A stretch of DNA of 64,000 nt from a virus. This document shows, one piece after another, positions 5,507 to 45,221 of this stretch (the stretch's first letter is position 1; every line of letters starts with the position of its first letter). The stretch lies in the IMG/VR virus record IMGVR_UViG_3300032116_000025; one strand, written 5' to 3'. The notes beneath the pieces are model-generated. The model saw only the letters and a program-made list of their open reading frames with translations. It did no database searches and had not been told where the DNA came from. The position numbers were made by a program, and so were the translations under genes.

Positions 5507-7510
5507 ATGCCGCGACTCCGGCTACTTCCGCCTGTAGAGGCGGCGTATACGCCGGAAGAGGCTGCCCCGATTCTCAGGTATCTGATGAATCGGGGCGGCC
5601 CTGTCGCCATCGACACAGAGACCACGGGACTTCAGATCATGAAGGACCGGGTACTCTATTGGTCGATGGCGACGGAGAGCCGTCGGTTCTTCTTCCCAGT
5701 AGAACTTCTTTACTACTTTGATCCGCTATTCCAGCGGCCAGATGTTACCTGGTATCTCGCCAACGCAAAGTACGACATGCACTTGCTCGCTAACATGGGT
5801 GTAACCCTGGTTGGCGACGTGTGGGACATCGTCGTGATGGACGCGATGGAGGACGACACCAGATCTCACGGCCTAAAAGAGCAGGCGTTCCTCGCTTACG
5901 GCGTGCGGTGGGGTGAGTTCAAAAACTTGTTTTTGGACAACAACGACCAGCAGCTAGACAAGATCACCCGGGCTGCGTTTCGGGAGATGAGCGTCGGGGA
6001 CAAGCTAGAGTTTGTGTTTAGGGAATCCCCCGAGGTTGTAGAGAACTACGCCTCGTGTGACGCGTTTTTTACGTACATGCGGGCTGAGGATCTGCGGTCA
6101 CAGCTGTCTAGCCAACCGCTGCCTACAGAAGTATGCGCGTCTTTTAGCTACCTGATCGACTATTTCCGCGTGATCGAGGTTCCACTGACGAAAGTCTTAT
6201 GGGATATGGAGCGCGCAGGCTTCATGGTCGATATGGACTACGTGAAGTCCATCGACGGACCAATGCGAGACGGCGTTGCTGCTGCTGAAAAGAGGATTTA
6301 CGAGGCGGCTGGGTACCGCATCAACCCAAGGTCTACAGATGATTTGCGGGAGATCCTGTTCAACAAAGACAAAGGCTTTGGGCTAAAGCCCATTAAGTAC
6401 ACGGCAAGCGACGACCCCAAAGCAAGCACCGACGATAAATCGCTGGATCTACTTTCGCTGCGCGCCGGGGTAGGCACCCCGGCGCAGAAGTTTATCAACG
6501 CGGTCCAAGACTACCGGCACATCGTCAAACTCCACGGCACCTACGTAAAGAACCTACACAAGCTTGTGTGGGGCAAGGGCGACAACGGCGACGGGCGTGT
6601 TCACTGCCGCATCAACCAAGCTGGCGCCCGAACATCCCGACTGAGTTCTGCTGACCCAAACATGCAGAACATTCCAGCTAGAAACGACGAGTACAAGATC
6701 CGTGGGGTATTTGTAGCGGATCCGGGCACCGACCTAGTTGACTTTGACTACCCCCAGATTGAGTTCCGGATTGCGGCATATCTAGCCGGGGAAGAGGCGA
6801 TGATGGAGCCCATCCGCAAGGGGTGGGACATCCATAGTGCAAACGGCGGTCACATGTTCCGCAAGGATGGCGTGACCTACGAGGGCATCATGGAGGCTAG
6901 GCGCAAGAAGGACGCTAAGGAGCCTCTTACCGACCGGGACAGGATGCTTCTAAAGAAGCGGGACCACTCAAAGGAGATTGGTCTAGCAAACCTGTACGGC
7001 AAAGGGGCGCCCAAACTTGCGGCAGAACTCAAGATCACCCTAGAGGAGGCTGAGGAACTCCAAAACGATTTTGCACGCGCGTACCCGAATATTGCTGGGC
7101 AGATTAGGGACATGAAGTCCTTTGCGCACGAGCATGAGTTCACCCACACGTGGCTCGGGCGTATCCGCCGGCTGTACCGGATCAATAACGAGCACAACCG
7201 GGGGCTTGTTGGTGCCGAAGAACGGCAGGCGTACAACACGCTAGTGCAGGGTACGGGCGCAGAGATGATCAAGCTGGCTATGCTTCGGATCGCCCATGAC
7301 AAGCGATTTAAGGAACTAGGCGGCCGTCTAATCTTGACGGTTCACGATGAGCTTATTTCTAGGTGCCCCAAAGATACGTCTAAGGATCTGTTCAAGGTAA
7401 AGAAGGAGTTGATGTCGGAACCCTTTAAGTGGGGACCCATCAACATCGATCTGCCCGTACCCGTAGACCCGGACGGACAGATTGGGCATCGGTGGAGCGA
7501 GCTGAAGTAA
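5507..7510 (+). CDS. polA: Family A DNA polymerase with 3'-5' exonuclease domain
   Basis: ExoI DTETTG, ExoII NAKYD, ExoIII YASCD, RLSSADPNMQNIP, motif A DYPQIE, motif B K-x7-YG, motif C VHDE. Confidence 0.95.
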   Translation: MPRLRLLPPVEAAYTPEEAAPILRYLMNRGGPVAIDTETTGLQIMKDRVLYWSMATESRRFFFPVELLYYFDPLFQRPDVTWYLANAKYDMHLLANMGVTLVGDVWDIVVMDAMEDDTRSHGLKEQAFLAYGVRWGEFKNLFLDNNDQQLDKITRAAFREMSVGDKLEFVFRESPEVVENYASCDAFFTYMRAEDLRSQLSSQPLPTEVCASFSYLIDYFRVIEVPLTKVLWDMERAGFMVDMDYVKSIDGPMRDGVAAAEKRIYEAAGYRINPRSTDDLREILFNKDKGFGLKPIKYTASDDPKASTDDKSLDLLSLRAGVGTPAQKFINAVQDYRHIVKLHGTYVKNLHKLVWGKGDNGDGRVHCRINQAGARTSRLSSADPNMQNIPARNDEYKIRGVFVADPGTDLVDFDYPQIEFRIAAYLAGEEAMMEPIRKGWDIHSANGGHMFRKDGVTYEGIMEARRKKDAKEPLTDRDRMLLKKRDHSKEIGLANLYGKGAPKLAAELKITLEEAEELQNDFARAYPNIAGQIRDMKSFAHEHEFTHTWLGRIRRLYRINNEHNRGLVGAEERQAYNTLVQGTGAEMIKLAMLRIAHDKRFKELGGRLILTVHDELISRCPKDTSKDLFKVKKELMSEPFKWGPINIDLPVPVDPDGQIGHRWSELK

Positions 7511-8764: not shown

Positions 8765-8786
8765 CGCCTATCAGGCCTGGCTATCC

Positions 8787-11741: not shown

Positions 11742-12280
11742 GCCAGACCCTTCCCGATAAGTACCGCGTTCGCACCCGGGCCGAGCTTGAGGAGCTTGCC
11801 GCATCGGCAGAACCGACCAAGCGCGGCGTCCTGGGTGCTCTGCTTCGAGAGCTTGGGTTTGACCCCAACGCGATCCTTGAGCTTAAGAGCAAGGAGCGGG
11901 TAGAGCTGATCCTGAAGACGCAGGAGGAGCGCGGTGGTAGCGCTCCTGCCCCGGTGGCCGCTCCCAAGGATGAAGCGCCGAAGGGTAAGGCTTCTCCGGC
12001 TGCGGCAGCTACTCCCACGAAGGAGAAGGCTTCACCGCCGGCAGCCGCCCCGGTTGACGCTCCTCCTGCCCCCGCTGCTCTGGAGAAGAAGATCTCGGAG
12101 TTGCAGGCGGTTGTTCTGGAGCAGGGCAAGGCACTGGCCAAGATGGCTCAGTACCTTCAGGACGCCCACTACCTCATCCGCTTGGTCGTGGCCAGCAACA
12201 GCGACACCAACGCTAACGCCAAGGACCCCGAGATCCGGGAGATGCTCTACGGCAAGCTGAGCGACTCGGGAAAAGGCTGA
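11738..12280 (+). CDS. Hypothetical protein (HeH-like domain, Pro/Ala/Lys linker, coiled coil); short form of a frameshifted gene
   Basis: RBS GGAG before the ATG at 11738, ATGA overlap; ends ...TCG GGA AAA GGC TGA. Confidence 0.8.
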   Translation: MSQTLPDKYRVRTRAELEELAASAEPTKRGVLGALLRELGFDPNAILELKSKERVELILKTQEERGGSAPAPVAAPKDEAPKGKASPAAAATPTKEKASPPAAAPVDAPPAPAALEKKISELQAVVLEQGKALAKMAQYLQDAHYLIRLVVASNSDTNANAKDPEIREMLYGKLSDSGKG

Positions 12281-12507
12281 CGGAGGACGTCATTCCGGCT
12301 CCTGACCTATCCGGCGTACTAAAGCTGACCCCGGACCAGCTTGTTCGGCTTACCCCGCGCGAGCTAGCAGAGATGAACCGGGACGACGTTCTCCAGTTGT
12401 TACATCAGCTAGGCTACTCGATTGAGGGCATCGAAACTCGGACGGCAGCACTGACTAAGCTGTCCTCAGCGATTACTGACGTAGAGGGAGAAGAACTCCC
12501 CGCATAG
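12268..12507 (+). CDS. -1 frame C-terminal extension reached by programmed ribosomal frameshift
   Basis: Slippery heptamer G GGA AAA (12268-12274); -1 frame open for 79 codons (GKRLTEDVIP...EGEELPA*), ending just before the terminator. Confidence 0.75.
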   Translation, partial: GKRLTEDVIPAPDLSGVLKLTPDQLVRLTPRELAEMNRDDVLQLLHQLGYSIEGIETRTAALTKLSSAITDVEGEELPA

Positions 12508-12510
12508 ACC

Positions 12511-12540
12511 GAAAGGGGGCACACGCCCCCTTTCTTTTTT
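12511..12540 (+). terminator. Intrinsic terminator of the replication operon
   Basis: GAAAGGGGGC-ACAC-GCCCCCTTTC followed by TTTTTT. Confidence 0.9.
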
Positions 12541-12549
12541 GATCTAAGC

Positions 12550-12583
12550 AAAAAAGGAGGCATACGGGTTACGTATGCCTCCT
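12550..12583 (-). terminator. Intrinsic terminator on the minus strand
   Basis: 12 bp stem AGGAGGCATACG/CGTATGCCTCCT; the A-run on + reads as a U-tract on -. Confidence 0.85.
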
Positions 12584-12670
12584 GGGTGTGTGGACTGTTT
12601 CAGGGCCAAACGGGGCTGTCAAGGGATCTCCCCTTGCACCATGGTCCACGTGTTTTTGGGCTATTCGCCT
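12550..12670 (-). ncRNA. Candidate ~120 nt structured small RNA
   Basis: Lies between the leftward promoter half and the minus-strand terminator; no real ORF; stems GTGGAC/GTCCAC and CAAGGG/CCCTTG. Confidence 0.45.
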
Positions 12671-12676
12671 CAATAT

Positions 12677-12732
12677 CTGATAGGCAATTTTGGCCAGTTT
12701 TTAGCTAAAAATAGGCCAAAACCCCCTATAAG
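12677..12732. promoter_or_regulatory. Palindromic back-to-back divergent promoter pair
   Basis: 34 bp palindrome at 12688-12721 (15 of 17 pairs); both strands read GCTAAAAA-N14-CTAT[AC]AGA. Confidence 0.65.
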
Positions 12733-12776
12733 AACATGAGAAGGCGAAATGCCTCTCAAACAAGGAGAAAACGAAC

Positions 12777-13193
12777 ATGGGCTTCTTCAGCAAGGTTTGG
12801 AGCGTCATCAAGTCTGCGGCAACGCGGACGTACAACGCGGTGGCCTCGGTCTTCCGGGGCACGGTCGGAGGCACCGTCGGTCTTCTGGTCGGAGTGGGCG
12901 GGGGCGTCGGATGCGCGCTTGCCATCGCACCGGCAAGCGTGGCGGGGTTCATCAACGGCGGAGCCAGCGACGGTGTCGCCGCGCTGGCGACGACGGTGGG
13001 CGGAACCATCGGGTTCCCGCTGGTCGGAGCAGTGGCGCTGCTCCTCAGCGTCCTGGCCGGTGTCGTCGACGCTGGATCCCACGCTATTCGTGGCGTGGGG
13101 CTCGGACTGGAATCGCGTGCGGTAGAGTGGATGCGGCAACAGTTCCCGCAGCAGTTCCCGCAGCCCCGCCGGGCTGCGGCGGCGGCTCGGTGA
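12777..13193 (+). CDS. Glycine-zipper membrane protein in a stand-alone cassette
   Basis: Strong RBS AAGGAG; amphipathic N-terminus GFFSKVWSVIKS; GxxxG-rich hydrophobic helices; own promoter and terminator. Confidence 0.75.
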   Translation: MGFFSKVWSVIKSAATRTYNAVASVFRGTVGGTVGLLVGVGGGVGCALAIAPASVAGFINGGASDGVAALATTVGGTIGFPLVGAVALLLSVLAGVVDAGSHAIRGVGLGLESRAVEWMRQQFPQQFPQPRRAAAAAR

Positions 13194-13197
13194 GCTA

Positions 13198-13240
13198 AGA
13201 AAGTGTGCGAGGGCCAAAAGCCCTCGCACACTTTCTCTTT
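13198..13240. terminator. Terminator hairpin between convergent genes, probably bidirectional
   Basis: Perfect 17 bp stem AGAAAGTGTGCGAGGGC/GCCCTCGCACACTTTCT with a 5 nt loop. Confidence 0.9.
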
Positions 13241-44402: not shown

Positions 44403-45221
44403 CTATTCCTTCTTAAGCACAGGGCCAATGATTCGCTCTACGCGCGTTTTTAGGTCATAGGCTCGGTGCGGCGGGATGCCCATCTTCTTTGCGATCTGCT
44501 GCGGAGTAAGCTGAGAGTCGCCCGCGGCGGGAAGATGAAACTCCGCGTACTGCCGTTCTTCCGGAGACATTTTGCTCTTCATAAGGAGAAATGCGTCCCG
44601 AGGAGACGCTACGTCTAGCTCCTCAGTAAGGTCTGTCCCCATGTGCGTATGCACTTCCGGAGAAAATCCCGTCTTTAGTTCCTTGATCCTCTTGATAGAC
44701 ATTCCTGGCAGCTTTTGCTGAAGCTCCAGAGCCGTGGGCTCTCGCCCGTAAAGATCAACAAACTCGTTTCGAGCGTTAGAAAACTCGCTGTATCGTCCGA
44801 TGTTTTCTTTGCTCATGTAAAGTGCGTTTCTGTTCTGGGCTACAAAGTCAGAAACGCGCTGAAAGTTGTTGTTGATGTGTGTGCTCAGCTGTGTCTTCTT
44901 TGCCGGATCGTAAGTCTGAATGGCTCTTACGGTTGCGTTGCGAAGCTCGTTCTTCATCGAGTCATAGGGGATCGCTCCGCCTAAGCTCTTCATGCGCTTG
45001 TTCGCCTCCCTAGAGATCATTGGATCAAGAGAAGTGAGAAGCGGCTCTAGGTGCTCAGGGGTCCTCCCACCTTCGTGCCACGTACGCCACTGGTCTAGTT
45101 CCTGCCCTCGCCTAGACCGCAGCTCCGCATAGCGCTCCTTGGCTTGACGCTGCCGAGCCTCGGTCATGGCGCCCACGGCGGACGCTGACTCCTTGATGAA
45201 CTCGTCAATCGGCTGATTCAC
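44403..45221 (-). CDS. Phage-encoded sigma-70-family factor
   Basis: Region 2 VRAIQTYDPAKKTQLSTHI, region 3 GREPTALELQQKL, region 4 HTH LTPQQIAKKMGI. Confidence 0.8.
   Translation of the reverse strand: MNQPIDEFIKESASAVGAMTEARQRQAKERYAELRSRRGQELDQWRTWHEGGRTPEHLEPLLTSLDPMISREANKRMKSLGGAIPYDSMKNELRNATVRAIQTYDPAKKTQLSTHINNNFQRVSDFVAQNRNALYMSKENIGRYSEFSNARNEFVDLYGREPTALELQQKLPGMSIKRIKELKTGFSPEVHTHMGTDLTEELDVASPRDAFLLMKSKMSPEERQYAEFHLPAAGDSQLTPQQIAKKMGIPPHRAYDLKTRVERIIGPVLKKE

Follow-up and report, generated by a model that had tools for sequence, protein, structure and literature searches.

A conserved 60-nt phage RNA motif absent from Rfam, encoded within a predicted stand-alone transcript divergent from a membrane-protein gene

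The prohead RNA of phage phi29 is a stand-alone transcript of ~120 nt with a closing helix that carries a bulge, a three-way junction and two hairpins, and tisB/istR is a type I toxin-antitoxin pair with a divergent layout. Among recurrent RNA contacts, the GNRA tetraloop has an 11-nt receptor consisting of UAUGG with CCUAAG, and the T-loop follows the pattern UGRRA. Phage-borne self-cleaving RNAs of ~60 nt that lie after tRNAs or stop codons include the hammerheads of prophages and the theta (minimal HDV-like) ribozymes, for which a placement criterion of ±5 nt was used (10.1101/2023.06.13.544163). A further set of small motifs, described in 2017, combines ribozyme- or riboswitch-like conservation with a following intrinsic terminator and a neighbouring, differently oriented protein gene; there it is argued that 3' terminators conflict with self-cleavage and that such motifs may have other functions (PMC5737381). 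Among large tailed phages, the multi-subunit RNA polymerase-encoding Caudovirales (mReC) carry beta and beta' RNA polymerase domains, and promoters and sigma factors go unmentioned in their description (PMC7481178).

We analysed a window of 64,000 nt, bases 21491-85490 of a 160,725-bp virus record (IMG/VR IMGVR_UViG_3300032116_000025), from a large freshwater phage of ~160.7 kb that encodes tRNAs and, like the mReC, beta and beta' RNA polymerase domains, here fused in a protein of 2066 aa; the likeness lies in these domains. The locus studied is bordered by the end of the replication operon on one side and by the convergent late genes on the other; its key feature is an RNA rather than a palindrome. 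Judged by sequence comparison, this RNA is a real, conserved phage motif absent from Rfam, the promoters are ordinary and the palindrome is incidental. The features, in window coordinates, are as follows.

12511-12534, plus strand: terminator that closes the replication operon, convergent with that of the RNA unit.
12550-12671, minus strand: predicted stand-alone transcript of ~122 nt, with 5' hairpin (12659-12669), linker, core and terminator; same layout in four related lineages.
12550-12583, minus strand: intrinsic terminator of the RNA unit, a 12-bp stem (12583-12555) plus U tract.
12590-12649, minus strand: RNA core of 60 nt, with nine distinct members, covariation and covariance-model matches.
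12644-12649 with 12590-12595, minus strand: P1 of the core, the closing stem, covarying.
12639-12643, minus strand: CAUGG of the core, invariant.
12631-12636 with 12620-12625, minus strand: P3 of the core, covarying, capped by a GAGAU loop (12626-12630).
12605-12616, minus strand: P4 of the core, variable.
12601-12604, minus strand: CCUG of the core, invariant.
12596-12600, minus strand: A-rich bulge of the core.
12677-12684, minus strand: left promoter octamer CCTATCAG, predicted +1 at 12671.
12688-12721, unstranded: imperfect palindrome of 34 bp, two back-to-back upstream promoter elements with CTAAAAA 20 nt before each octamer.
12725-12732, plus strand: right promoter octamer CCTATAAG, predicted +1 at 12738, kept in relatives.
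12738-12757, plus strand: 5' leader hairpin of the membrane-gene mRNA, loop GAAAU here and GAGAU in relatives.
12777-13193, plus strand: membrane protein of 138 aa, with an amphipathic N-terminal helix and two hydrophobic Gly/Ala-rich segments.
13198-13236, unstranded: perfect 17-bp hairpin, a terminator that separates the membrane gene from the convergent late genes.

The two divergent promoters proposed in a first-pass annotation both belong to a class that recurs throughout the genome. Its consensus, CCTAT(A/C)AG-N4-T^G, is present in 26 copies, and in over-representation no other 8-mer of the genome matches CCTATCAG (16 against 2.4 expected), which ranks first, and CCTATAAG (10 against 0.9 expected). 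Most octamer copies are intergenic and oriented into a gene. Across 23 promoter sites, T occupies +12 in 20 and a purine +13 in all 23, positions that likely mark the transcription start, and a weak A-rich element lies ~20 nt 5' of the octamers. With the octamer, T at +12, purine at +13, an intergenic position and co-orientation with their units, both 'mirror' promoters are, by these features, ordinary copies of the genome-wide promoter. The layout CTAAA-N15-CCTATMAG recalls sigma-28 promoters, which fits a weak FliA/WhiG sigma match in the genome (E 2.5e-4, far below the cut-off) in a 272-aa protein (window 44403-45221, minus strand) whose gene is preceded by its own CCTATCAG promoter. On this consensus, the phage RNA polymerase, probably with the FliA/WhiG-like sigma, may fire both promoters. 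Within the replication operon, CCTATCAG copies at 8767 and 11010 (plus strand), one inside a RusA-like gene, recur at the same two places in several relatives and are possible internal promoters. The operon ends at 12268-12507 (plus strand) with a likely -1 programmed frameshift. The slippery heptamer, G GGA AAA here and G GGA AAC in eight relatives with protein identities as low as ~45%, stands just before the stop of a 179-aa ORF and is followed in the -1 frame by ~76 conserved codons; these have a weak Phage_TAC_6 match (E 8e-4), despite their place in a replication operon.

The rightward unit carries a membrane gene, as previously annotated: a hydrophobic 138-aa ORF with a ribosome-binding site at 12763 and the 17-bp hairpin behind it. 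The protein matched no Pfam, PHROG, NCBIfam or Atlas family, its AlphaFold model was of low confidence (pLDDT 56), and those of its homologs with genomic context all belong to this phage group. Homologs of this protein and of a neighbouring gene led to four further lineages (L007, L008/9, L016/17 and L024-32), with PolA 84-91% identical where compared. All four contain the same cassette at the same site, inverted. In one direction, CCTATAAG and a leader hairpin that hardly varies precede a membrane-protein homolog of 139-147 aa (40-52% identical); in the other, CCTATCAG heads a unit of ~125 nt consisting of 5' hairpin, core and terminator. The proposed non-coding RNA beside a membrane gene is borne out and proves conserved, both being kept together in all five lineages; neither cassette nor motif was found in remoter relatives (45-60% protein identity). 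A protein gene at this position in relatives had been named as evidence against the RNA, and one seemed at first to be present; it proved to be the inverted membrane-gene homolog. In the four relatives, a further gene that lacks a promoter octamer begins ~10-30 nt after the RNA terminator tail, belongs to either of two families and is absent from this phage. The idea of a cassette that lost its gene is partly borne out, this gene being missing here after the inversion, but the RNA is a conserved module and not a gene remnant.

The accessory slot of relatives also holds HExxH membrane proteins of two families (L007:6904-7584, L016:2206-2835, L010:6215-6676), the one tested having no Pfam, PHROG or NCBIfam match. 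Because one bulged hairpin serves as the membrane-gene terminator of a relative (L025:~512-545) and also closes a different unit of this genome (G000 ~126109-126142), and most units end in a common U-tract-GCC tail, terminators appear to have been shuffled between cassettes and may have served as inversion breakpoints.

A type I toxin-antitoxin system, in which the RNA would pair with and silence the membrane-protein mRNA, matches the divergent layout seen in tisB/istR, the small hydrophobic protein with its amphipathic N-terminus and the retention of both partners through inversion. However, the longest perfect complementarity to the cognate mRNA was 7-10 nt against a shuffle mean of ~8, fell at different places in each lineage and was no better for cognate pairs, so that the predicted base-pairing of an sRNA with its partner mRNA stayed at shuffle level and appears largely refuted. 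With distant copies of the core lacking such a partner, and 138 aa being far above the typical length of type I toxins, this is the most improbable of the explanations weighed here. The GAGAU loop of the leader hairpin in relatives is the same as that of P3, and the presence of GA(G/A)AU on both the RNA and the partner leader may hint at a shared binding protein.

The palindrome between the promoters is present as first described, AT-rich (68%) and symmetrical outwards, with 30 of 34 positions self-complementary and 36-nt arms at 75%; at 28-nt arms (22/28) it is the best gap-free palindrome of the genome. The mirrored words were likewise recovered, GCTAAAAA-N14-CTAT occurring at +12704 and -12705, and the suggested genome-wide scan found these two copies only. 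The downstream words TGAG..GGCGAA are indeed shared by both units, but partly as just the promoter start-site consensus. The inter-promoter spacer of 40 nt (20 + 20; 30/40 self-complementary) brings the two upstream elements into contact, which produces the palindrome centre. In relatives, spacers of 41-52 nt have 16-20 self-complementary positions and are not palindromic, and the CTAAAAA element is kept at -20 of the mRNA promoter (four of five exact, one CGAAAAA). Given its absence from the four related lineages, the palindrome is not a conserved operator or origin, nor was the proposed recombination site upheld; it is a by-product of two back-to-back promoters, with local duplication or conversion as candidates for the strong flank symmetry. 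A role at the DNA level (as operator, origin, packaging site or recombination site), or mere accident, is very unlikely: the palindrome is strong and one or two distant copies of the core lie near terminase genes, yet the symmetry is not conserved, the conserved stems use G-U pairs on one strand, and the core is enclosed by promoter and terminator.

From the promoter consensus, the leftward RNA is predicted to start at ~12671 and would form a stable ~122-nt transcript with ends protected by the 5' hairpin and terminator. The earlier estimate of a ~120-nt unit with its own terminator stands; the absence of an ORF does not strictly hold, since there are frames of 7 codons (ATG) and 26 codons (GTG), neither of them conserved. 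No conserved small ORF was detected among the lineages (ATG frames of 7-33 codons), and P4 lengths of 13, 16, 16, 15 and 17 break the frames. Across lineages the sequence changes in the 5' hairpin, the linkers and the terminator, whose stem remains paired, and stays constant in the core. Of the several stems proposed, P1 and P3 covary; once the terminator is removed, the folding energy of the unit is no better than that of shuffles (z -0.99), so the structure rests on covariation, not energy. Contigs assembled from four freshwater metatranscriptome runs span neighbouring genes and leave 12515-12916 uncovered; all shown pieces are at least 151 nt, so a 122-nt RNA is not expected among them and the gap is evidence neither way. 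One metatranscriptome contig at 11429-11465 carries five clustered C>T changes in 40 nt at a depth under 3, which may reflect error or a strain.

All nine members, five of them related, share one order of elements: CAUGGU, an 8-nt arm, a GAGAN loop, an 8-nt arm, the variable P4 and CCUGARA, with the 8/5/8-nt spacing of P3 fixed in 9/9. These blocks and the covarying stems describe the core as a three-way junction with invariant CAUGGU and CCUGARA and a GAGAN loop at fixed distance. In an unfitted seven-sequence alignment, with kinship ignored, pairing holds in 96% of cells and both sides have changed in 9 of 16 pairs, a level of covariation reached in 0 of 500 shuffles; slid registers gave 25-38%. 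The covariation analysis suggested for the left-unit RNA is therefore positive, with the structure read from the same sequences that were counted and the four distant members independent in origin. A further calculation used a model-fitted alignment, which leans towards the structure. P2 is invariant in all members, the covariation covering P1 and P3, and pairing of CAUGG with CCUG lies within ~1 kcal/mol of an extension of P3 over CAUGG, the bases being invariant in either case. The core probably folds into a compact three-way junction in which the invariant junction and bulge bases and the GAGAN loop, at a constant 8 nt from CAUGG, make tertiary contacts, the GAGA loop and CCUGAAACA being putative contact sites. 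Two candidate features were rejected: a pseudoknot between 5' linker and P4 loop, plausible by eye in four lineages, is missing from L024 and the distant members, and a likeness to lambda boxB (GCCCUGAAA) is not kept in the distant members.

Relaxed pattern scans of IMG/VR, in which pairing was not required, recovered two contigs (L044 and L066) with perfect P1 and P3 of wholly different stem sequence; at the pairing rate of 0.378 in 112 other pattern matches, 0.0025 such hits are expected by chance. The seven-sequence covariance model found two more, L134 (E 1.8e-7) and L139 (E 6.8e-5), with rough E values and neither used in building it. The core is hence carried by four unrelated phages with stems swapped and still paired, and its host phages span 42-66% G+C and differ in gene content. 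In L066 the core takes up all 84 nt that separate a stop codon from the gene for the terminase large subunit (terL); in L044 it begins 3 nt after the CCA of a tRNA-Met, with a terminase small subunit gene ~2.5 kb upstream on the same strand; in L134 and L139 it starts a few nt after stop codons. This tRNA-Met (L044:1258-1330, minus strand) is unusual in its C1-A72 mismatch and was called by ARAGORN, whereas the Rfam tRNA model did not call it. Downstream of each of the four distant copies lies a co-directional gene; none of these copies has a promoter, and none has a terminator directly behind the core.

Strict pattern scans of IMG/VR and JGI metagenomes returned chance hits in coding DNA only, a GTDB scan with the close-relative pattern gave 32 hits, none backed by pairing or model, and ~1,580 genomes of four phyla gave two hits to the nine-member pattern, both without P3 pairing and equal to the two control hits. 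BLAST of the cores against cultured phages and plasmids found no match. The core is single-copy in this genome, a second hit of 17.5 bits inside a gene having been rejected. The Rfam search suggested earlier for the left-unit RNA returned no family at the gathering threshold: Rfam 15 gave 0 hits in the window (best local E 1.1), and at the four distant loci the motif went unmatched as well. A literature search found no match to the motif; 10,006 candidate viral RNAs (PMC10690425) lay outside that search, and a prior listing there is possible. Elsewhere, this genome (G000) carries at 126607-126683 (plus strand; L162:1607-1683), outside the window, a CyVA-1 RNA above the Rfam cut-off (47.7 bits), two loops of which look mutually complementary.

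A regulatory leader (riboswitch-, attenuator- or put-like antiterminator), orphaned here by inversion, would account for the octamer-less gene behind the terminator in 4/4 related lineages, the co-directional gene at 4/4 distant copies and a terminator that starts 5-6 nt after P1. We regard it as distinctly unlikely, as the downstream genes are of different families or missing, inspection revealed no conserved antiterminator pairing against the 11-13-bp terminator stem, and the core is intact here without a gene to control.

The main rival explanation, itself unlikely, is a self-cleaving ribozyme of an undescribed class that would cut phage polycistronic RNA between genes and trim tRNA trailers. 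Its size, covarying stems and invariant unpaired core agree with this, as do the in-operon placements: three copies lie a few nt after a stop codon (L066 occupying the whole gap before terL) and L044 3 nt after the CCA, within the ±5 nt of theta ribozymes; L044 is the one member of the nine within 5 nt of a tRNA 3' end. L134 also contains, at 5779-5841 (plus strand), a type II hammerhead-like element with an intact core that begins at another stop codon and scores 32.9 bits against a cut-off of 37. No known catalytic motif was recognised, however: the hammerhead core CUGANGA (with GAAA and UH, three stems) and the hairpin ribozyme loop B strand GUANAUUAC opposite GAAACA are absent from 9/9 members, and the nested double pseudoknot of HDV-like and theta ribozymes, in which P1 closes before P4, does not accommodate a covarying P1 that encloses the whole motif, with no Rfam HDV-like hit. 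The other three distant contigs and this genome yielded no ribozymes, and in five lineages the core stands alone between 5' hairpin and terminator, with nothing to process.

The simplest account of a predicted free RNA whose ends are protected in five lineages, taken together with the in-operon copies elsewhere, is a module recognised by its shape, and we give a probability of about 40% to the core being a protein-binding RNA module of this kind, here predicted to be made as a stand-alone small RNA. The double-changed pairs, distant members found without a pairing requirement or by an independent model, the fixed P3 arm, the unit's own promoter, 5' hairpin and terminator, the persistence of the RNA while the downstream gene varies or is missing, and the published view on 3' terminators and self-cleavage (PMC5737381) all favour this explanation. 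Against it, the members number only nine, five of them related, P2 is invariant, and the four distant copies without promoter or terminator better fit a cis-acting or self-cleaving element. The portable module would be recognised most likely by a host or phage protein, acting in cis between genes or after a tRNA in other phages and made free in this phage, perhaps as decoy or partner of the binding protein. Somewhat unlikely is the bolder proposal of a new ribozyme class or a natural self-assembling loop-receptor module of unrelated phages, turned into a free trans-acting RNA in this phage group. An invariant core with freely swapped stems is how new ribozyme and riboswitch classes were found, and the nine natural variants of the 60-nt core are testable at once for cleavage, oligomerisation and protein binding. 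The locus is also a compact template, from promoter to terminator, for a group of uncultured phages that encode their own RNA polymerase.

Compared with the phi29 prohead RNA, the unit is alike in size and layout and some core copies lie near terminase genes, but it has no complementary kissing loops and no sequence or Rfam match, and its host phages are unrelated. CAUGG/CCUG resembles the 11-nt receptor, UGAAA or UGAGA fits the T-loop and the loop-to-receptor layout recalls engineered tectoRNA dimers, a resemblance only, given a pentaloop rather than a tetraloop, a spacer of 8 nt rather than ~10 bp and different platform bases. Like theta ribozymes (10.1101/2023.06.13.544163) and prophage hammerheads, the core is phage-borne, ~60 nt and found after tRNAs or stop codons; unlike them it lacks a nested double pseudoknot or hammerhead core, is closed by P1 and is predicted to be a stand-alone transcript here. 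From the motifs of PMC5737381 it differs in having no Rfam match to any of them, a different core, a membrane-protein partner and copies without a terminator, whilst sharing their small size, their ribozyme- or riboswitch-like conservation and, in this phage group, an intrinsic terminator beside a differently oriented protein gene.
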